38,292 nucleotides of DNA, taken from positions 1 to 38,292 of the forward strand of contig JBHHXN010000030.1 of the NCBI GenBank assembly GCA_046757025.1, read 5' to 3'. A program made the translations under genes and the position numbers. A model generated the notes under the pieces. The model had not been told where the DNA came from, made no database searches, and was given only the letters and a program-made list of their open reading frames with translations. Below, one piece after another: positions 3,219-26,011 of this stretch. Numbering within the stretch: position 1 is the first letter of the stretch; each line of letters begins with the position of its first letter. This DNA comes from a bacterium. GTDB taxonomy: Bacteria; Zhuqueibacterota; Zhuqueibacteria; Oceanimicrobiales; Oceanimicrobiaceae.

Positions 3219-6077
3219 ATGCAAGACATCATTCAAGCTTTGCGAAAACACCTCCAGGGCGAGGTGAGATTTGATCTGACCTCCCGTATTCTGTACAGTA
3301 CCGACGCCAGCATTTATGAGCTCATGCCGCTGGGCGTGGTCATCCCGAAATCGGCAGAGGATATTCAGGCGACCATTGAAATCGCTCATCAACATGGTGT
3401 AGCCATCGTTCCCCGCGGGGCCGGCACCAGCATCGTAGGCAATGCCATCGGAGAAGGCATCGTCCTCGACTGCTCAAAATACCTGAACCACATCCTTGAA
3501 GTGAACCGTGAAGAAAACTGGGTGCGAATTCAACCGGGCGTGGTGCTGGATCAACTCAATCAGCATCTCAAAACATTCGGGCTTTTGTTTGGCCCGGATG
3601 TGGCTACCAGCAGCCGCGCCAGCCTAGGGGGCCTCATCGGCAACAACTCTTCTGGCGCCCATTCCATCGTTTACGGTAAAACCCTCGATCACGTGTTAGA
3701 ACTCAAGGTACTGCTTTCCAACGGCGAGACCGCTAAGTTCACTTCGCAGACACATGCTGAATGGCAAAACAAGCTCAACAAACCCGGCTTTGTGAATTCG
3801 CTTTATTCTCGAGTAGATGCAATCGTTCTGGAAAACCAAGATGAAATCGAACGGCGGTTTCCGAAAATACTGCGTCGGGTTGCGGGTTACAATTTAGATG
3901 AATTTGTACAGAAAACCCACCACAATCTGGCAAAATTGCTGGTGGGTTCCGAAGGCACTTTAGCGGTGGTCACCGAAGCGAAGCTCAATCTCGTGCCTCT
4001 GCCAAAACACAGTGTGCTGGCGGTGGTGCATTTTCACGACCTGTTTTCCGCTCTGGATGCCGTTAGCCCTATCATCGATTTTCAACCCTCTGCCATCGAG
4101 CTGTTGGATGATAATATCATCGACTTGACACGCAGCACCATGGAATGCTCGCGCCGACTGACCTTTGTGGATGGCTTCCCAGCCGCGCTGTTGCTGGTGG
4201 AGTTTCAGGGGGATTCGAAAACGGCTTTGATAGAGAAGTTAAACCGGCTCGCTGATTTTCTTTCCAAAAATAAATTGGGCTATCAGTGTTTTAAGGCAGT
4301 GGAAAACGCCCAGCAGGCGGATGTCTGGTATGTCCGCAAGGCTGGCCTGGGCCTGTTGATGGGTACGCGTGCTGACCGTAAGCCCATCGGCTTCATCGAA
4401 GATTCCGCCGTGGCTCCTGAGAAACTACCGCAGTACATCAAACGATTCGATGAGATCGTGCGCTCTTTTGGCACGGAAGCCGCTTACTATGCGCACGCCA
4501 GTGTGGGGTGTTTGCACATTCGTCCCAAGCTCAATTTGAAAGATGCGCACGATGTGGAAATTATGGCCAAAATGGCCGCCGCCATCAGCAGCCTGGCCTT
4601 GGAATTTGGCGGCACCATCAGCGGTGAGCACGGCGACGGTTTGGCGCATAGCTGCTGGAACGAGAAAATGTTTGGCAGCCGTCTTTACCAGGCATTTCGC
4701 GAAATCAAAAAGGCGTTCGATCCCAAAAATATTTTGAATCCGGGCAAAATCGTCGATGCGCAATTTCTCACAAAGAATTTCCGAAAGCCCCCCAATCCTG
4801 AAATTCAAACCATCCAGCCGTTTTTTGATTATTCCAGAGAAGGCGGCCTGAACACCGCCATCGCGATGTGCAACGGCAACGGCTTCTGCCGTAAACTAAC
4901 CGAAGGCGCCATGTGTCCTTCCTACATGGTGACATTGGAAGAAGCGCACTCCACCCGCGGACGCGCCAATGCGTTGCGTGCAGTGCTCACAGGAAAAGTC
5001 GAGCCGTCTGAGTTTACCAGCCGCAAGATGTATGAAATCATGGAGCTGTGCGTTTCCTGCAAGGGCTGTAAAGGCGAGTGCCCTACCAACGTGGACATGG
5101 CGAAATTGAAGACAGAATTTCTGTACCATTATCACAAAACCCATGGCTTGCCCCTGCAGGATAAGCTGTTTGGGAATATCGCCACATTGAGTCGGTGGGG
5201 TAGTCGTCTGGCACCGATGTCGAATTGGCTGTTACACTCGTTGCCGGTGCGCTGGTTATTGCAACAAGCGATCGGGATCGAATGCCGTCGGGCCTTGCCG
5301 ACTTTTGCCCGTGAGCCGTTTCATCGTTGGTTTGAAAAACGTCCCGTGCGGACTCAAGCTAATAAAGTCGTGTTGTTTAACGACACCTTTTTAAATTTCA
5401 ATTATCCACAGATCGGCCGGGCAGCGGTGATTGTGCTGGAAGCGGCGGGTTGGGAAGTCATCCTGCCGGAGAAAAAATGCTGCGGCCGGCCGTTCATCTC
5501 GCGGGGCATGCTGCAGGAAGCGCGCAAACATGTCGAATACAATATCGATGCCCTTTATCCGCTGATCGAGCAAGGGTACCAGTTGGTGGGATTTGAGCCA
5601 AGCTGCGTTTCGACATTTCGGGAGGAGTATCCGGACTTGCTGAAAGATTCGCGGGTGACCGATGTGGCTGAAAATACGTTGTTGTTTGACGAGTTTTTGC
5701 TTACGGTGCTGGCAAATCCGGCTTCCGACTTGAATTTCAAACGTGCTGAAAAGAAATATTTGCTGCACACGCACTGCCACCAAAATGCGTTGATCGGCAG
5801 CCATTTAACCCGGCAGCTTTTACAAGTGATTCCAGACCTGCAAGTGGAAGCAGTAGATGCTGGCTGCTGCGGCATGGCCGGTGGCTTTGGATATGAAAGA
5901 GAACACTATCAATTTTCATTAGCCATGGGCCGGCGGAAGCTTTTCCCGGCCGTGGAAGCCAAAGATGATTCCTGGCAGATGCTGGCGACCGGTGTTTCCT
6001 GCCGGCAGCAGATCGAGCATGCCACCGGCAAATCCGTCAAACATCCGGTGGAGGTACTGGCTAAACATTTGCCATAA
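3219..6077 (+). CDS. FAD-linked oxidase fused to 4Fe-4S/CCG domains (YdiJ-like; GlcD+GlcF/GlpC-type fusion)
   Basis: YSTDASIY, PRGAGTS, GSEGTL, SGEHGDG, CNGNGFC..MCPS, CVSCKGCKGECP and the CCG motifs CCGRP and CCGMAG. Confidence 0.9.
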   Translation: MQDIIQALRKHLQGEVRFDLTSRILYSTDASIYELMPLGVVIPKSAEDIQATIEIAHQHGVAIVPRGAGTSIVGNAIGEGIVLDCSKYLNHILEVNREENWVRIQPGVVLDQLNQHLKTFGLLFGPDVATSSRASLGGLIGNNSSGAHSIVYGKTLDHVLELKVLLSNGETAKFTSQTHAEWQNKLNKPGFVNSLYSRVDAIVLENQDEIERRFPKILRRVAGYNLDEFVQKTHHNLAKLLVGSEGTLAVVTEAKLNLVPLPKHSVLAVVHFHDLFSALDAVSPIIDFQPSAIELLDDNIIDLTRSTMECSRRLTFVDGFPAALLLVEFQGDSKTALIEKLNRLADFLSKNKLGYQCFKAVENAQQADVWYVRKAGLGLLMGTRADRKPIGFIEDSAVAPEKLPQYIKRFDEIVRSFGTEAAYYAHASVGCLHIRPKLNLKDAHDVEIMAKMAAAISSLALEFGGTISGEHGDGLAHSCWNEKMFGSRLYQAFREIKKAFDPKNILNPGKIVDAQFLTKNFRKPPNPEIQTIQPFFDYSREGGLNTAIAMCNGNGFCRKLTEGAMCPSYMVTLEEAHSTRGRANALRAVLTGKVEPSEFTSRKMYEIMELCVSCKGCKGECPTNVDMAKLKTEFLYHYHKTHGLPLQDKLFGNIATLSRWGSRLAPMSNWLLHSLPVRWLLQQAIGIECRRALPTFAREPFHRWFEKRPVRTQANKVVLFNDTFLNFNYPQIGRAAVIVLEAAGWEVILPEKKCCGRPFISRGMLQEARKHVEYNIDALYPLIEQGYQLVGFEPSCVSTFREEYPDLLKDSRVTDVAENTLLFDEFLLTVLANPASDLNFKRAEKKYLLHTHCHQNALIGSHLTRQLLQVIPDLQVEAVDAGCCGMAGGFGYEREHYQFSLAMGRRKLFPAVEAKDDSWQMLATGVSCRQQIEHATGKSVKHPVEVLAKHLP

Positions 6078-12432: not shown

Positions 12433-13977
12433 TTGAATAACCAAAATAAATATTCCACCTATCAAAAAGTCAGCCTGCTGCTTGGGATTCCGATCTTTCT
12501 TGCCATCTTGTTGCTTCTCCATCCCACCGGACTTTCACCGGAGGGTCAAAAAACACTGGCCATAGCCGTGTTGATGGCTTTTTGGTGGATTACCGAAGCC
12601 CTCCCCATTCCCGCCACCGCTTTGATTCCGTTGGCTCTGTTTCCCGCTCTCGGAATCATGAGCTACCGCGATGTGGCGCCCAATTACAGCGACAGCGTCA
12701 TTTTTTTATTCATGGGCGGCTTTTTATTGGCCATGGCCATGCAAAAATGGCAGCTCCACAAAAGATTGGCCCTGCGCATCGTCAGTGTGATCGGCACCAG
12801 TTCGCACCGCATCGTGTTAGGTTTTATGACGGCTTCCGCTTTCATCTCCATGATGATCTCTAACACCTCCACAACTTTGTTGATGTATCCCATCGGTCTG
12901 GCGGTGATTTTGCAGTTAGCTGAATTAAAAAAGGCGAACACAAATGAAGAAAAATTAGACGACGGTACGCATTTTCAAACTGCCCTACTGTTAGGCATTG
13001 CCTATGCGTCCAGCGTGGGTGGCATCGCCACGTTAATCGGCACGCCCCCCAATGTGATTTTTGCCGGCGTGGTAACCTCCATTTTCCCGCAAGCGCCGGC
13101 GGTCGGTTTTTTTCAGTGGATGCTCATTGGCGTCCCTTTGTCGGTACTATTTATTCCTGTGATTTGGATTTGTTTAACCCGGTTGATTTTTCCATTATCG
13201 CGCGTTGAGGTAGCTGGCGGCAAACAGGTCATTCGCCAGCAGCTGGCGCAGCTCGGTAAGATCACACGAGGAGAAAGGTTAACACTGATTATTTTTATCG
13301 TAACTGCTTTTGCCTTGATTTTTCGGCGCGACATCGATCTGCATATCATCACCATTCCTGGCTGGAGCGATTGGCTGGGACTGTCGGCCTTGGTGAGCGA
13401 CACCACGGTGGTGATGTTTGCGGCCTTGTTGATGTTTGCCATCCCCGTGGATTTGAAAAAAGGCGAGTTCGTTCTGGACTGGCAGTGGGCCGTGAAAATT
13501 CCATGGGGTTTGCTGCTTTTGTTTGGAGGCGGCATTGCGTTGGCCAAGGGCTTTCAAACCACAGGATTGGCGGCATGGTTGGGATCCCATTTAACTTACT
13601 TGCAAAATGTGCCCGTCATCCTGATGATTTTGAGCATTTGCCTTTTGCTGACTTTCCTGACCGAGCTGACCTCCAACACGGCCATCACCACCATCTTTAT
13701 GCCGATTTTGGCTTCAACTGCTGTGGCCATGCATACGCATCCCTTTCTTTTAATGATTCCAGCAGCCATGTCTGCCTCATGCGCTTTCATGCTGCCGGTG
13801 GCCACTCCGCCGAACGCCATTATATTTGGCTCGGGCTACATCAGAATTTCACAAATGACGCGAGCAGGATTTGCGCTAAATATCCTTGGGGCGGTTTTGA
13901 TAACCCTTCTGGTTTATCTGCTGGCGCTGCCTGTGTTTAACATAAGCCCGGGTACGGTGCCAGTTTGGGCGCAATAA
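12433..13977 (+). CDS. DASS/SLC13 family Na+-coupled di/tricarboxylate or sulfate symporter
   Basis: WWITEALPIPATAL, ISNTST, TLIGTPPN, TELTSNTA and FMLPVATPPNAI (both SNT motifs present). Confidence 0.93.
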   Translation: MNNQNKYSTYQKVSLLLGIPIFLAILLLLHPTGLSPEGQKTLAIAVLMAFWWITEALPIPATALIPLALFPALGIMSYRDVAPNYSDSVIFLFMGGFLLAMAMQKWQLHKRLALRIVSVIGTSSHRIVLGFMTASAFISMMISNTSTTLLMYPIGLAVILQLAELKKANTNEEKLDDGTHFQTALLLGIAYASSVGGIATLIGTPPNVIFAGVVTSIFPQAPAVGFFQWMLIGVPLSVLFIPVIWICLTRLIFPLSRVEVAGGKQVIRQQLAQLGKITRGERLTLIIFIVTAFALIFRRDIDLHIITIPGWSDWLGLSALVSDTTVVMFAALLMFAIPVDLKKGEFVLDWQWAVKIPWGLLLLFGGGIALAKGFQTTGLAAWLGSHLTYLQNVPVILMILSICLLLTFLTELTSNTAITTIFMPILASTAVAMHTHPFLLMIPAAMSASCAFMLPVATPPNAIIFGSGYIRISQMTRAGFALNILGAVLITLLVYLLALPVFNISPGTVPVWAQ

Positions 13978-14236: not shown

Positions 14237-15598
14237 ATGTCTGAATTCATCAAAGATTTTATGGCAGAGATCAAAGCAAAAAATCCGAGTGAGCCGGAGT
14301 TTCATCAAGCTGTGGAAGAAGTAGCTGAGTCCTTAGTTTTGGTTCTGGATCGCCATTCGGAATATCGTTCTGCCAAAATATTGGAGCGTATTGCCGAACC
14401 GGAACGCGTCATCATGTTCCGGGTGCCGTGGGTAGATGATCAGGGGCACGTTCAGGTCAATCGCGGATTTCGCATCGAAATGAACAGCGCTATTGGTCCA
14501 TACAAAGGCGGCTTGCGATTTCACCCTTCTGTAAACCTGGGTATCTTAAAATTTTTAGCTTTTGAGCAAGTGTTTAAAAACAGTCTGACCACCTTACCCA
14601 TGGGGGGCGGCAAAGGTGGCTCGGATTTTGATCCAAAAGGGAAAAGCGACACTGAAGTCATGCGATTCTGCCAGAGTTTTATGAATGAATTGTTTCGACA
14701 TATTGGCTCGAACACAGACGTACCGGCTGGCGATATTGGCGTGGGCGGCCGGGAAATAGGTTATTTGTTTGGGCAGTACAAAAAACTAAGCAACGAATTC
14801 ACCGGTGTGCTCACTGGCAAGGGTTTGAATTGGGGCGGTTCCCTCATTCGTCCGGAAGCGACCGGTTACGGCTCAGTCTATTTTGCAGCGGAAATGATCG
14901 CCACCCGCGGCGAAACTTTGGAAGGCAAGACCTGCCTGGTTTCGGGCAGCGGCAACGTGGCTCAGTACACGGTGGAAAAGATCAATCAACTTGGCGGTAA
15001 GGTGGTTACCCTATCTGATTCCAGCGGCTATATCTATGATGAAGAAGGAATTTCAACGGAAAAGCTGGAATTTGTGAAGGAGCTGAAAAACGTGCGTCGT
15101 GGCCGGATTAAGCAATATGCCGATAAATATCCCAACGTGGTTTATACCACAATCGATCCCGCGGCGGACCATAATCCAATCTGGAACCACAAAGCGGACT
15201 GTGCTTTCCCGAGCGCAACTCAAAATGAAATCAATGGCCAGGATGCCCAAAATTTAGTCAACAACGGGGTTTACGTGGTCAGCGAAGGCGCAAACATGCC
15301 CACCACTTTGGACGGCGTCAGGATTTTCTTAGACAACGGTGTTCTCTATGGGCCTGGCAAAGCCGCCAACGCCGGCGGTGTGGCGGTGTCTGGCCTGGAA
15401 ATGACTCAGAATAGCATGCGGCTTCCCTGGACTCGCGAGGAAGTCGATCAAAAGCTGCATCACATCATGAAAAGCATTCATCAAACCTGTGTGGAATTTT
15501 CGGAACGATTTGGTACGCCGGGCAATTATGTCAATGGGGCTAACATCGGCGGATTCCTCAAAGTGGCCGACGCCATGCTCGATCAAGGAATTGTTTGA
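14237..15598 (+). CDS. gdhA: NADP-specific-type glutamate dehydrogenase
   Basis: GPYKGGLRFHPSV, LPMGGGKGGSDFDP, DVPAGDIGVG, RPEATGYG, SGSGNVA, PGKAANAGGV; GAGGAGG SD. Confidence 0.97.
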   Translation: MSEFIKDFMAEIKAKNPSEPEFHQAVEEVAESLVLVLDRHSEYRSAKILERIAEPERVIMFRVPWVDDQGHVQVNRGFRIEMNSAIGPYKGGLRFHPSVNLGILKFLAFEQVFKNSLTTLPMGGGKGGSDFDPKGKSDTEVMRFCQSFMNELFRHIGSNTDVPAGDIGVGGREIGYLFGQYKKLSNEFTGVLTGKGLNWGGSLIRPEATGYGSVYFAAEMIATRGETLEGKTCLVSGSGNVAQYTVEKINQLGGKVVTLSDSSGYIYDEEGISTEKLEFVKELKNVRRGRIKQYADKYPNVVYTTIDPAADHNPIWNHKADCAFPSATQNEINGQDAQNLVNNGVYVVSEGANMPTTLDGVRIFLDNGVLYGPGKAANAGGVAVSGLEMTQNSMRLPWTREEVDQKLHHIMKSIHQTCVEFSERFGTPGNYVNGANIGGFLKVADAMLDQGIV

Positions 15599-15623
15599 TT
15601 TTTATCGCAATTATGATTATTAT

Positions 15624-15654
15624 CGGAGTGGCGATTTGCCGCTCCGTTTTTTTT
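15624..15654 (+). terminator. Rho-independent terminator after gdhA
   Basis: CGGAGTGGC-loop-GCCGCTCCG hairpin followed by T8. Confidence 0.8.
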
Positions 15655-15696
15655 ATACAGCAGCGAAGAACTCGGAAGTAACAAAGCAAGTTTAAA

Positions 15697-15846
15697 TAGT
15701 GTCCATCCGTAATCGTCATTCCCGAATGCTCCCTGCTTACAACATGCAGGGACAAGCTCATCGGGAATCTCATGCCTAACGGAACAATGGATTCCCGCTC
15801 AAAGATTGCGGGAATGACAAAAAAGGTTCTTTACGGATGGACACTA
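15697..15846. mobile_element. 150-bp MITE-like element with perfect 16-bp terminal inverted repeats
   Basis: TAGTGTCCATCCGTAA (15697-15712) / TTACGGATGGACACTA (15831-15846). Internal GTCATTCCCG...CGGGAATC and GATTCCCGC..GCGGGAATGAC hairpins. Second copy at 1-63. Confidence 0.85.
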
Positions 15847-15906
15847 AATAATAGAAAAATATTGGGGAATTTGGAATCCCTTGACACTTCGTTAAAGGCG
15901 TAAATC

Positions 15907-18900
15907 ATGGCGAAAAAAACGAAAAATTTTCATGACGGAAATTTTGAGCCGCTGTGGTTAGAACAGGGTTACGGTGCCCGGGTGCAAGCCTTTCAAAATC
16001 TCATGCGCTACCGCATCCGCGACATTTTGATGGTGTCCAGTCTGTACGATTTGTTTTTGTTTGAGGAAGACGGACGACTTTACGAGCTGTTGCGGGAAGA
16101 ATACCGGGATTTGAATCTTAGTCACGCACCGGAGCTTACACGCGTTTCCAGCGGCAAAGAGGCCATTCGCATAGCCAAAGAAGAGAAGCGTTTTGATCTG
16201 ATCATTACCACGCTGCACATTGACGACATGCAGCCGCATTCATTCGCCAAACTGGTGCGGGATTCCCAACTGAATATTCCCATCGTGCTGCTGGCTTACG
16301 ATCATCGTGAGCTGCAGGAATTGCTGCTTTATCACGATCCCTCGGTGTTCGACCAGGTTTTTGTCTGGCAGGGCAACTTTCGCATTCTCATCGCCATCAT
16401 AAAATGTCTGGAAGATAAAAAAAATGTTGACCATGACACGCGCGCTGTGGGGGTGCAGTCGATTATTCTCATCGAAGACCAGGTACGCTACTACTCGTCC
16501 TTTCTGCCTATTTTTTACATGGAAATTTTTCAACAGGCGCGGCGGCTGCTTTCCGAAGGCATCAACCTGTCGCATCGATTTTTACGAATGCGGGCACGGC
16601 CTAAAATTCTTTTGTGCAACAATTATGAGGAAGCGTGGAATTATTTTTCCAAATACAAGGATTATATTCTCGGCGTAATATCTGATATCGATTTCATGCA
16701 CAACGGCAAGGAAGATCCTCAGGCGGGCATTGAATTTGCCCAAAGCGTCAAACGATTGCATGAGGACATCCCCATTCTGCTGCAATCGAATGTGCCTGAA
16801 AACGAACAAAAGGCGTATGAGGCCGGCGCCTCGTTTCTGCTCAAGCAATCGCCAACATTGTTGGAAGAGCTGCGTAAGTTCATGTATGAACATTTTTCAT
16901 TTGGTGAATTTGTGTTTCGAACGCCCGACGGCCGCGAAATTGCCCGGGCCCATGATTTGAAATCTCTGGAAAAACAGCTCAAAGTGGTCCCCGAAGAAAG
17001 TCTGAAATATCACGGTGAGCGCAACCATTTTTCCAATTGGTTAAAGGCGCGTACCGAATTCTGGTTGGCTCACAAATTGCGTCCGCGCAAAGTCTCTGAT
17101 TTTTCTTCCCTGCAGGGTCTGCGTCAAGATCTGATCAATTCCCTCCGGGAATATCGCAAAGACCGCCAGCGCGGTATCATAACCGACTTCAAAAAAGAAA
17201 CGTTCTATCCCCTGAGCAGCTTTGCCAGAATCGGAGGAGGTTCACTGGGTGGAAAAGCCCGGGGATTGTCGTTTGTAAATAAATTGATTTACAATTATAA
17301 AGTGAACAACCGATTTAAAAACGTTAAGATTTTTATACCGCCGGCTGTGGTTCTTGGTACCGATGTTTTCGATGAATTTATTGAAGAAAACGATCTGCAC
17401 CACTTTGCCTTAAACGCCACGTGTGACCAAGATATCATTCAAAAATTTTTAGCCGCTGAAAAATTTCCCGCGTCGGTTGTATCGGATTTAAAATATTTTC
17501 TACAATCCATTAAAACTCCCTTAGCCATTCGTTCTTCGAGTTTGATGGAAGACTCGCAGTACTTTCCCTTTGCTGGCGTTTACAACACATACATGCTGCC
17601 AAATAACAACAAAGTTTTGAATGCGCGATTAGATGAATTGCTTTGCGCGATAAAGTTGGTTTATGCGTCCACATTTTATCAAAATTCAAAAGAATATTTC
17701 AAAGTAACTTCGTACCGTCTGGAAGAGGAAAAAATGGCGGTCATCATTCAGAAGATGGTCGGAACACAGCACGGCGAGCGATTTTATCCGGATTTTTCCG
17801 GCGTGGCCAAATCGTACAACTTTTATCCGGTGGAACCGCAAAAATCGTACGACGGAATTTGTTCCATTGCGTTAGGGCTGGGAAAGACCGTGGTGGATGG
17901 CGGCATAACCGTAAAATTTTGTCCTAAATACCCTAACCTGATTCCACAGTTTCATACCATCGATGAAACGCTCAAATCAAGTCAACAGACTTTTTTTGCC
18001 ATGAACCTATCCGGCAAAATCGACAAGTCATCTGAAGCCAATTACGGATTGATCAATGAATTTGATTTAAGTCATGCAGAAAAAGACGGCACGCTCAAGT
18101 TTGCCGGGTCCACTTATTCACACGAAAACAGCGTTATTTATGACGGCATCGCCCGCCCCGGCTTCCGGCTGGTGACTTTTGCCCCGATTTTGAAGCACGG
18201 TTTATTTCCGCTTGCTGAAATCGTACGGCTTTTGTTGGATCTGGGGACCTGGGCCATGGGCACGCCGGTGGAAATCGAATTTGCCGTGAATCTTTCCCAT
18301 TCAAAAAGTAAACAACCAGAATTTGGTTTTTTACAAATGCGGCCGTTGGCGATTCGACATGAATTCGATGTGCTGGAAATCAACGAAACGCAGCCGGACA
18401 AATTGATTTGCCAAAGCAAAAAAGTTTTGGGGAACGGAATCATTTCGGATATTCAGGATATCGTGGTAGTGGACATCCATCGTTTCGATCGCTTTAAAAG
18501 TCACGAAGTCGCCAGGGAAGTGACCATTTACAATACCCGGCTGATTGCTGAAAATCGGCCGTATCTTTTAATCGGTGTGGGTCGGTGGGGCTCCATGGAC
18601 CCGTTATTAGGAATTCCGGTGAAATGGGAACAAATTTCCGGCGCTCGGGTAATCGTGGAAGGGGGATTCAAAGACTACAGTGTTGCGCCTTCGCAAGGTT
18701 CCCATTTCTTTCATAATCTCACCTCCTTCCGGGTCGGATATTTCACCATCACATCTGATACCGCTGACGGCTTTCTAAATTGGGAGTGGTTGTTGAAGCA
18801 GCCATCTCATGACGAAATGCAATTCACCCGGCACTTGCAATTAGACGAGCCAATCACCGTGAAAATGAACGGCCGGAAAAATTTGGGCGTCATTTTAAAG

Positions 18901-18924
18901 CCGGCCCCTAGATCAACCAACTGA
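15907..18924 (+). CDS. Receiver-domain / PEP-pyruvate-binding (PPDK_N ATP-grasp) dikinase-like protein
   Basis: Two receiver-like domains, then GGKARGL, PLAIRSSSLMEDS..FAGVY, MAVIIQ, EIEFA and LQMRP ATP-grasp motifs; C-terminal GRWGS...GSHFF; no C-terminal PEP/pyruvate barrel. Confidence 0.85.
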   Translation: MAKKTKNFHDGNFEPLWLEQGYGARVQAFQNLMRYRIRDILMVSSLYDLFLFEEDGRLYELLREEYRDLNLSHAPELTRVSSGKEAIRIAKEEKRFDLIITTLHIDDMQPHSFAKLVRDSQLNIPIVLLAYDHRELQELLLYHDPSVFDQVFVWQGNFRILIAIIKCLEDKKNVDHDTRAVGVQSIILIEDQVRYYSSFLPIFYMEIFQQARRLLSEGINLSHRFLRMRARPKILLCNNYEEAWNYFSKYKDYILGVISDIDFMHNGKEDPQAGIEFAQSVKRLHEDIPILLQSNVPENEQKAYEAGASFLLKQSPTLLEELRKFMYEHFSFGEFVFRTPDGREIARAHDLKSLEKQLKVVPEESLKYHGERNHFSNWLKARTEFWLAHKLRPRKVSDFSSLQGLRQDLINSLREYRKDRQRGIITDFKKETFYPLSSFARIGGGSLGGKARGLSFVNKLIYNYKVNNRFKNVKIFIPPAVVLGTDVFDEFIEENDLHHFALNATCDQDIIQKFLAAEKFPASVVSDLKYFLQSIKTPLAIRSSSLMEDSQYFPFAGVYNTYMLPNNNKVLNARLDELLCAIKLVYASTFYQNSKEYFKVTSYRLEEEKMAVIIQKMVGTQHGERFYPDFSGVAKSYNFYPVEPQKSYDGICSIALGLGKTVVDGGITVKFCPKYPNLIPQFHTIDETLKSSQQTFFAMNLSGKIDKSSEANYGLINEFDLSHAEKDGTLKFAGSTYSHENSVIYDGIARPGFRLVTFAPILKHGLFPLAEIVRLLLDLGTWAMGTPVEIEFAVNLSHSKSKQPEFGFLQMRPLAIRHEFDVLEINETQPDKLICQSKKVLGNGIISDIQDIVVVDIHRFDRFKSHEVAREVTIYNTRLIAENRPYLLIGVGRWGSMDPLLGIPVKWEQISGARVIVEGGFKDYSVAPSQGSHFFHNLTSFRVGYFTITSDTADGFLNWEWLLKQPSHDEMQFTRHLQLDEPITVKMNGRKNLGVILKPAPRSTN

Positions 18925-24577: not shown

Positions 24578-26011
24578 TTAAGTAACCTGATTTACCTGCT
24601 CGGCTGTTTTGATGAGGTTGATCGCCAGGCAAACGATGGCTGCCATGCCGAAGAGGCCAGAAAATCCAAAAGCGGTCTGCATGACCACAACCGTGCCGGG
24701 CAAAAGCTTGAACAGTTCGGACGGCAGGAGCAAAGGAACGATACGGCTAACGACTGCCAACGAAGCCAGCCAGAACGTGGCCATGACCAATCCTGGTCGT
24801 GCGACTTTCTTCTTTTTTATAAAACCAGGAATCATGCGCACGGACATACCCAGAATGAGGTGCGTGATGAAACCCAGCAAATAGATGTGACGAACGGCAT
24901 CGGTGCTGATGGCAGCGTTCCAATTGGTGAATACCGAAAACCCGACGATAATTTCGACAACCGCCCCAAACAGCAGCCAGCTGTAAGCCGCGTAAATGAG
25001 ATATTCGAAATAGCCGAACTCGCCGTAATCGGGCATGCCCTCGCGAGTGGGTCGCCGGTTTACACCCGGGTGCAGCAGGCGTTGAATGGTCCAGGGTTCA
25101 CGCCAGCGGGTGAGAACGTCAATTTTCCAGATGAACCAGAGAATGGCGGCGCTTTTGAGCAGGCGTCCGGCATTGGACAGATACAAAGGCCAGCTCGCAT
25201 CCATGCTCAAAATAGGCGGTAAAGTGGGGAGAATTTGTGAGCACACTGCTGCAAAATACACCAAGGCCAGTTTTTTCACCGACCAGTCCACCACCGGCAA
25301 TCGCAAATACAGCGGAAACATGCGTACGGAAAAGGCAAACGCCACGGGCAGCAACACCAGTGTGATGAACATCTGAAGGCCGAATTCATTCCATTCCGGG
25401 TCCATAACGGTTTTGTTCTGAAATACCAGATTCCAGCCTAAAATCACCATGAGCAAACCGTAGAGGAACCAGCCGCTCAGCATCATGGCAAAAAATGGCC
25501 GAACCGAAAGCAGAGCCGCCCGTTGCGAAAAATTGTGCACTTTCAGAATGGTTTCAACGATGAGCACAAAATAAAGAATGATGCCTATTAACTCCAGAAT
25601 CGTGGATAGCAGAATCAGGATTTGAACTGAAGAGACCAGAAACGAATCGGTTAAATAAGGGAGAATCGAATGACTGAGAAATCGGATGCTCAAACCGGCG
25701 GTTATGAAATAGAGCACCAGATCGATGCGTTTAGGCCTGGCGATGGGCACGCCTGCCAGTCTTGGAATAAAGTGCAGACTGACTCCGAGAATGAACAGAC
25801 CGGCCCAGCCCACCAGTTGCAAATGCCCGTGGGTTTGAACGAAGGCATGGTAGCCGCGGCTGAGGGGGAAATCCAGTCCGATTACCGAAGCCACATGCGC
25901 GCCCAGTGCAAAGCCCGCGAAAATGGCCACACCCAGCGCCCACCAGATGAAGCGGATTTGAAACTCAACCTGTTTTTTTTGCAACACAGTTTCAGTTTTC
26001 GTTTGGATCAT
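24578..26011 (-). CDS. NnrS-like polytopic membrane protein
   Basis: About 12 TM helices; QTHGHLQLVGW, HFIPRL, DAVRHIYLLGF, RMIPGF internally repeated His/Pro motifs typical of NnrS-type proteins. Confidence 0.7.
   Translation of the reverse strand: MIQTKTETVLQKKQVEFQIRFIWWALGVAIFAGFALGAHVASVIGLDFPLSRGYHAFVQTHGHLQLVGWAGLFILGVSLHFIPRLAGVPIARPKRIDLVLYFITAGLSIRFLSHSILPYLTDSFLVSSVQILILLSTILELIGIILYFVLIVETILKVHNFSQRAALLSVRPFFAMMLSGWFLYGLLMVILGWNLVFQNKTVMDPEWNEFGLQMFITLVLLPVAFAFSVRMFPLYLRLPVVDWSVKKLALVYFAAVCSQILPTLPPILSMDASWPLYLSNAGRLLKSAAILWFIWKIDVLTRWREPWTIQRLLHPGVNRRPTREGMPDYGEFGYFEYLIYAAYSWLLFGAVVEIIVGFSVFTNWNAAISTDAVRHIYLLGFITHLILGMSVRMIPGFIKKKKVARPGLVMATFWLASLAVVSRIVPLLLPSELFKLLPGTVVVMQTAFGFSGLFGMAAIVCLAINLIKTAEQVNQVT

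Follow-up and report, generated by a model that had tools for sequence, protein, structure and literature searches.

Protein regulators of bacterial glutamate dehydrogenase (GDH) include GarA/OdhI, GltAB-GudB and, in Thermus, APRTh. The nearest known system to the protein described here is rifampin phosphotransferase (RPH; PDB 5hv1, 5fbs) with its relatives PigC/RedH/HapC, HpeHI and MarK. In RPH, residues K22, R117, and T136 hold ATP in place for phosphoryl transfer to His825, and R117 and T136 are required for resistance and for rifampin phosphorylation (PMC4844700). Here, we analyze P0001, a protein of 1005 amino acids (aa) encoded 3' of the GDH gene gdhA in a 38,292-nucleotide stretch of bacterial DNA (contig JBHHXN010000030.1 of assembly GCA_046757025.1, phylum Zhuqueibacterota; the whole stretch is called the window below). 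P0001 belongs to a real, widespread, and apparently undescribed dikinase-superfamily variant that is closely tied to GDH. By analogy with known dikinases, we favor, at a probability of roughly 40%, the reading that P0001 is a signal-gated dikinase dedicated to the neighboring GDH, which it would switch by phosphoryl transfer.

Domain organization of P0001

The two genes lie on the same strand, and the P0001 open reading frame (ORF) begins 308 nt 3' of gdhA. Their features are as follows.

14237..15598, plus strand: gdhA, a family-I NAD(P)-glutamate dehydrogenase of 453 aa, the proposed partner (Pfam ELFV_dehydrog, ELFV_dehydrog_N; NCBIfam PRK09414)
15907..18924, plus strand: P0001, a receiver-receiver-DUF5752-like-ATP-grasp-His-swivel protein of 1005 aa
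16012..16422, plus strand: pseudo-receiver (receiver 1), residues ~36-172, with T102 (16210-16212) at the phospho-Asp position
16453..16902, plus strand: intact receiver (receiver 2), residues 183-332, with E190/D191, D260 (16684-16686), S294, and K313, and a long helical insert at 193-228
16903..17175, plus strand: DUF5752-like small domain, residues ~333-423 (Pfam PF19027 match at 347-422, under cut-off)
17215..18363, plus strand: ATP-grasp domain of the PPDK/RPH type, residues ~437-819, with invariant K450, R542, E548, D549, T561, E791, and Q810
18376..18906, plus strand: putative swivel-fold His domain, residues 824-1000, with the invariant H933 (18703-18705) opening a helix at 933-940

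The gdhA product scored 764.7 bits against PRK09414 (cut-off 536). The P0001 gene is single-copy in its own genome, which holds a second, family-II-like GDH elsewhere; the closest named relative among the matches is a KSB1 genome (72% identity). Conservation was followed in an alignment of 149 homologues with 36-72% identity, 96 of them from loci including the query and 53 from the homologue-candidate search; family size is based on 7976 of 8000 scored candidates and on genome samples. The AlphaFold2 model of full-length P0001 made with this alignment had a mean pLDDT (predicted local distance difference test) of 84.2. The initial annotation, a description made from the DNA letters and their translations, had divided the protein into five parts, and all motifs that it quoted are present in the translation.

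The Pfam domain PPDK_N (PF01326) matched residues 446-820 of P0001 (E 3.6e-37, 128.8 bits, cut-off 27), and the nearest structure to the ATP-grasp in the VIA structural search was RPH (Z 26.3, root-mean-square deviation (rmsd) 2.7, 283 residues aligned). K450, R542, E548, D549, T561, E791, and Q810 are present in 149 of 149 homologues, which bears out the earlier view of this domain as intact. P0001 therefore has the PPDK_N domain with conserved nucleotide-binding residues by which the dikinase superfamily is recognized. R542 and T561 align to R117 and T136 of RPH, whereas K450 is matched to K22 only through its motif.

No Pfam match to the pyruvate/PEP (phosphoenolpyruvate) barrel (PEP-utilisers_C, PF02896) was found in P0001, which ends five residues past its His domain. 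The only two PF02896 barrels in the genome belong to ORFs of 921 and 594 aa, both of which also have the swivel family and are, judged by sequence, PPDK- and enzyme I-like genes. Hence the absence of the barrel, asserted at the outset, stands. This bears on the identity given to such proteins in databases. Names such as "phosphoenolpyruvate synthase" and weak NCBIfam matches would make P0001 a PEP synthase or PPDK, its gdh linkage reflecting co-regulation of carbon and nitrogen flux. The PpsA/PPDK models, however, give it 20-68 bits, all far under their cut-offs of 598-1350. With no barrel in the protein, no stand-alone barrel in the genome, and a complete PPDK-like gene elsewhere, PEP synthase identity was rejected, and we give this explanation next to no chance. 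Many database entries of the family are probably misnamed, and PEP synthase activity is probably impossible for the protein alone.

The end domain, when folded alone (residues 824-1000, 146 sequences), reached a pLDDT of 92.9. Its best VIA match was the His-swivel of RPH (756-867; Z 7.4, rmsd 3.2, 112 aligned), followed by the PPDK phosphoryl-carrier domain (7.1 and 6.8), a DRTGG domain (6.8), the extra C-terminal domain of pyruvate kinase (6.7), and enzyme I (6.2 and 6.1); six of these seven top matches are phospho-His-type domains. H933, present in 149 of 149 homologues, begins a helix, and a strand follows at +11; the T/S-H motif of PPDK and enzyme I from these genomes has the same spacing. 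Because of these matches, the position after the ATP-grasp, and the invariant His in this helix-strand register, the modeled end domain is likely, though not proven, to be a diverged phospho-His swivel. The likeness to swivelling domains proposed earlier is thus retained at moderate Z, but the domain is not "short" as first described (~177 aa). PF00391, the Pfam swivel family, was unmatched in the end domains of the 146 members. An end-domain profile run against PDB sequences gave as its best match a longin domain (E 0.042), taken as chance, and ESM Atlas returned only unnamed or same-family clusters.

Receiver 1 gave a VIA Z of 11.6 over residues 36-172; its Pfam Response_reg match (E 2e-6, residues 74-130) is under cut-off. 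Position 102 is never Asp in the 149 homologues, with T, M, S, or V found instead, in agreement with the suggestion that this receiver is degenerate. Receiver 2 matched the TorR receiver (VIA Z 14.2), and E190, D260, S294, and K313 are kept in 149 of 149 homologues, as expected from its first description. It thus has the fold, acidic pocket, Asp, Ser/Thr, and Lys of a phosphorylatable receiver. The DUF5752-like module proposed to follow it is a weak match in P0001 itself, under cut-off (PF19027, E 6.7e-4, 19.5 bits, cut-off 23), but exceeds the cut-off (23.5 and 23.8 bits) in two of the four long Bacteroidales homologues that were scanned.

Association of the family with GDH genes

The survey of gdh enrichment, set beforehand as a possible refutation of a role in GDH control, found enrichment, and found it across phyla. 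The sample from the window's own phylum comprised 150 other genomes. In these, 72 receiver-type copies were counted, each matching in full or over the N-terminal part; C-terminal pieces in genomes G107, G030, G068, and G146 and a fragment in G145 were left out. A family-I gdhA lies within 1 kb of 50 of the 72 copies and within 6 kb of 55; of the remaining 17, several lie at the end of a contig or close to a family-II GDH. Of the 71 genomes with the receiver-type protein, 68 have a family-I gdhA, versus 6 of the 79 genomes that lack the protein, and the three genomes with the protein but no family-I gdhA are 76-80% complete. The two genes also covary within nine families holding both states. 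These co-occurrence counts are given without a p-value because kin genomes are not independent.

In Bacteroidales, a homologue was present in 75 of the 81 genomes searched, and of 102 near-full copies, 40 have a gdh within 6 kb (in 31 of 74 genomes), versus ~0.5% by chance. The initial annotation had stated that similar genes sit beside gdh in Bacteroidota under the name PEP synthase; both the linkage and the names are there, but the linkage is looser than was implied. Members of any subfamily occurred in 29 of 141 sampled genomes of the phylum of the Bacteroidales, 13 of 81 from the phylum of a spirochaete, and 9 of 61 from that of a Bacteriovoracaceae genome.

Neighbor clustering covered all ORFs in 166 loci (numbered with the prefix L), mostly within 1.5 kb on either side and some of them overlapping. 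GDH was a neighbor in 93 loci. The next most frequent, a small zinc-ribbon-like protein, occurred in 18 loci, and every other family in at most 7. The zinc-ribbon-like ORF (~66 aa) lies directly 3' of the receiver-type gene (L006:8970-9185, L026:4433-4666, and 16 more loci) and often precedes a family-II GDH; none is beside the P0001 gene in the window. No separate conserved cluster of histidine kinases appeared in these mostly narrow loci, the rest of the genomes not being searched, and the first cluster may have absorbed receiver-containing neighbors. In FastTree trees of 59 protein/GDH pairs, two clades of Bacteroidales paralogues (support 0.997 and 1.0) are each matched by a clade of GDH; the GDH clade with support 1.0 also includes one spirochaete GDH, and the other has support 0.842.

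The constant part of the family near GDH is the ATP-grasp/His core, not the N-terminus. Paralogues that consist of the core only (580 aa) or carry other N-termini (930 and 1060 aa) adjoin family-II GDH (L039-L042, L049, L050, L053); the 1060-aa form has a C-terminal nucleotidyltransferase-like domain. Paralogues of 870 aa (L151-L154) have an N-terminus with no Pfam match that we read as KaiC/RecA-like, and in L154:4154-9719 such a paralogue lies between gdhA and a helix-turn-helix-cupin regulator carrying a related N-terminal domain. Among 34 paralogue rows with other architectures, 33 retain the His. A split form also occurs (L050:9537-15922, L051:6283-12437): proteins of 551 and 482 aa are encoded directly upstream of a large GDH of 952-957 aa, the former with a degenerate ATP-grasp and an intact His motif, the latter matching the receiver-2/DUF5752 region. 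Long Bacteroidales paralogues (L135-L140, 1150-1540 aa) have an extra N-terminal region without a Pfam match; several are transcribed divergently from their own gdh, and some form a tandem with the short paralogue.

A metallophosphoesterase, a possible eraser, is found in 6 of the 166 loci. In L039-L043 (e.g., L042:4376-11484), it accompanies the 580-aa core-only and the 1060-aa paralogues, with a family-II GDH in L039-L042 but not in L043; this cluster is a possible writer/eraser set. In L146:4855-8842, a metallophosphoesterase is divergent from a receiver-type copy.

The paralogues also bear on whether P0001 could be an internal histidine kinase, in which phospho-His933 would pass its phosphate to the protein's own Asp260 and the phosphorylated receiver would be the output on GDH. 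Such a relay would account for the invariance of D260 and its pocket and, subject to the possible merging of receiver proteins noted above, for the lack of a separate histidine-kinase cluster. Nevertheless, the GDH-linked paralogues of 580, 870, 930, and 1060 aa retain the His with no receiver match, and we consider the relay very unlikely.

The gap between gdhA and P0001 contains two further elements, which the initial annotation had missed.

15624..15655, plus strand: intrinsic-terminator-like hairpin directly 3' of gdhA, 10 pairs (7 G-C; stem 15624-15646) followed by a T-run
15692..15851, no strand assigned: dispersed ~160-bp repeat between gdhA and the P0001 ORF, detected by blastn

The intergenic query gave 103 blastn matches genome-wide, many with 90-96% identity over ~160 bp. 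From these sequences, the repeat looks like a recently spread element of the REP/MITE type (repetitive extragenic palindrome or miniature inverted-repeat transposable element), a label that is our own reading. The gap is long because this repeat was inserted, and the repeat takes up most of it; the corresponding gaps are only 3-6 nt in L029, L034, and L073. Comparable hairpins were seen by eye in the short gaps of several relatives, e.g., L010 and L065. A simple unbroken gdhA-P0001 operon was rejected for this genome, as the gap holds both the terminator-like hairpin and the repeat. A DASS-family anion symporter (window 12433-13977) lies directly 5' of gdhA; the same neighbor was found in one other locus only (L001), so that it probably represents local synteny, and it was rejected as a component of the system. 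Farther away, the window encodes a fusion protein of 952 aa that joins an FAD-linked oxidase to 4Fe-4S and CCG domains (3219-6077) and, on the minus strand, a membrane-like ORF of 477 aa (24578-26011) with only a weak COX1 match (E 1.7e-4, under cut-off).

A candidate phosphoryl switch of GDH

In the mechanism that we favor, the beta-phosphate of ATP would be transferred to H933 with release of AMP and Pi, and the His domain would then swivel off the ATP site, both steps by analogy with RPH and PPDK. GdhA would be the acceptor in trans, replacing the missing third domain; one of its side chains would be phosphorylated and its activity reversibly changed. Gating would occur through phosphorylation of D260 by a kinase and/or through a ligand at the pseudo-receiver, and the paralogues would place other input domains on the same core. 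GDH is proposed as the acceptor because P0001 has no acceptor site of its own, the N-termini are exchangeable and of sensor type, and GDH is the sole constant neighbor.

The acceptor of phospho-His933 might instead be a small molecule (glutamate, glutamine, 2-oxoglutarate as an enol phosphate, or a nicotinamide cofactor), held by GDH as a third domain or by the N-terminal domains of P0001 itself. All structural neighbors (RPH, HpeI, PEP synthase, PPDK) use small molecules, split dikinases such as HpeHI exist, and genes of amino-acid metabolism such as aminotransferases recur nearby (6 of 166 loci). However, no conserved substrate-binding partner gene was found in the 166 loci, where GDH is the only common neighbor, and a freely diffusing metabolite needs no separate paralogue beside each GDH paralogue. 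The N-terminal domains vary between subfamilies and would therefore offer no shared substrate site. A small-molecule acceptor is thus doubtful, if clearly worth considering.

Transfer to GDH would have a bearing on older observations. In Bacteroides fragilis, GDH undergoes reversible inactivation by ammonia, and the title of a 1996 paper by Baggio and Morrison names "trans-acting gene(s) downstream of gdhA." If true, the protein-dikinase reading would explain both the genes of that title and the inactivation. The B. thetaiotaomicron member of the family is presumably BT_1972. In expression data, BT_1972 is annotated as ATP-binding and kinase and is transcribed from a start site of its own, divergently from BT_1973; nitrogen and glutamate metabolism is the category given for both BT_1970 and BT_1973, and the log2 change of BT_1972 over 13 conditions stays between -0.91 and +0.24 (PMC10994844). 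In one comparison from the same source, its log counts per million (logCPM) are 3.43 versus 6.23 and 5.29 for two flanking nitrogen-metabolism genes, i.e., ~7-fold and 3.6-fold lower (PMC10994844); the BT_1972 gene is probably longer than these two. If this identification holds, such expression fits a low, steady catalyst. GDH is described as a main ammonia-assimilation route in gut Bacteroides (PMC4539542). No account of the family or of its GDH link was found in the literature, subscription papers being mostly outside the search.

Structure prediction, suggested at the outset for P0001 alone and with GdhA, gave the domain folds and a weakly supported complex. The prediction for P0001 437-999 with GdhA 17-453 scored 0.38 versus 0.00 for the best control, a grade at which complexes are more often wrong than right unless the pairing is likely beforehand. 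Of 157 solved complexes, 116 reach the mark for such predictions, as do 2 of 215 mismatched pairs; with scores of 0.60 or less, only 18 of the 157 reach it, along with both mismatches. The contacts agree between runs to at least 73%, and the pLDDT of the partners is 88 or higher. We know of no similar solved complex that the predictor could have memorized. The model gives weak support to binding of GdhA by the P0001 core.

Binding might also be the whole of the effect, as in the switches that GltAB exerts on GudB and GarA on large GDH. By binding ATP/AMP and autophosphorylating at H933 or D260, P0001 would then adopt a conformation that binds the GDH hexamer and inhibits or activates it, leaving GDH unphosphorylated. 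The complex score, weak as it is, points this way, as do the split forms that adjoin GDH with a degenerate ATP site and the paralogue-matched protein/GDH pairs. A full catalytic residue set is, however, invariant in the receiver type (149 of 149), and the terminator-like hairpin 3' of gdhA suggests that less P0001 is made. The low BT_1972 reads would likewise fit a catalyst better than a stoichiometric inhibitor, if BT_1972 is indeed a member. We therefore regard a purely non-covalent switch as unlikely.

Several observations weigh against phosphoryl transfer to GDH by P0001. The Z scores of the end domain are below 8, a range that VIA calls common; Foldseek gave no match to this domain at E<=0.001, although many of its weak rows are what we take to be swivel-fold proteins, and hhalign to shallow PPDK and enzyme I swivel profiles gave a probability of <1%. 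Linkage to GDH is incomplete: six genomes have family-I gdhA without the receiver-type protein, and in Bacteroidales, whose genomes are fragmented, the linkage is confined to the 40 of 102 copies. There was no GDH in the stretches examined around the 770-aa and ~600-aa paralogues (L044-L048, L052) or around three of the four KaiC-like-type copies (L151-L153). The pairs L004, L082, L057, L073, L088, and L003 are not mirrored between the two trees, and mirrored trees are in any case expected from co-inheritance of linked genes alone, so that the paired clades show long retention as pairs, not physical contact. A degenerate ATP site with a retained His in the GDH-adjacent split forms fits binding better than catalysis. 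Finally, all dikinase-type enzymes known to us act on small molecules or glucans, and the complex score is of the unreliable grade described above.

A wider scheme would extend the phosphoryl-transfer reading to the whole family. Its members would be widespread "protein dikinases" that convert ATP to AMP and Pi and, by means of a swivelling phospho-His, place phosphate onto three GDH classes under the control of interchangeable sensors (receivers, KaiC-like, and others). With a phosphoesterase at some loci, they would constitute a reversible covalent nitrogen switch in anaerobes, including gut Bacteroidales. We put this forward tentatively, as a possibility with the odds against it. GDH links carbon metabolism to nitrogen metabolism. 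If it is modified, P0001 would represent a type of protein kinase without precedent known to us, with phospho-His dikinase chemistry acting on a protein, and would connect the older observations of GDH control after translation in Bacteroides with a gene that can be tested. If a metabolite is the acceptor instead, the family would mark an unknown phosphorylated intermediate of glutamate metabolism.

Comparison with known systems

P0001 has in common with RPH the ATP-grasp fold, the equivalence of R542/T561 to R117/T136, a C-terminal swivel-like His domain, and the lack of a pyruvate barrel. Unlike RPH, it passes from the ATP-grasp (which ends at ~819) to the His domain (which starts at ~824) with no large acceptor domain, rifampin-binding or other, in between; it begins with two receivers, and its gene is tied to GDH. 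Its His domain is ~50-60 residues larger than that of RPH and lacks detectable sequence likeness to it. Against the RPH family NF041857, P0001 scored 26 bits (cut-off 999).

With PpsA and PPDK, P0001 shares the order of ATP-grasp and then swivel-like His domain, and Foldseek and VIA gave matches to 2ols, 1vbg, and 2fm4. Unlike these enzymes, it stops after the His domain and has no PEP/pyruvate TIM barrel. The N-terminal half recalls PleD, in which tandem receivers, one of them degenerate, also precede an enzymatic output (Foldseek E ~1e-7). The output of P0001 is, however, a dikinase core, not GGDEF, and its pseudo-receiver comes first, the reverse of the order in PleD. GarA/OdhI, GltAB-GudB, and APRTh are likewise dedicated post-translational partners of GDH; their folds are unrelated to P0001, and none is of the ATP-grasp/phospho-His type. 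By analogy, we infer that the first half-reaction of P0001 would resemble that of RPH or PEP synthase, while membership of both families fails.

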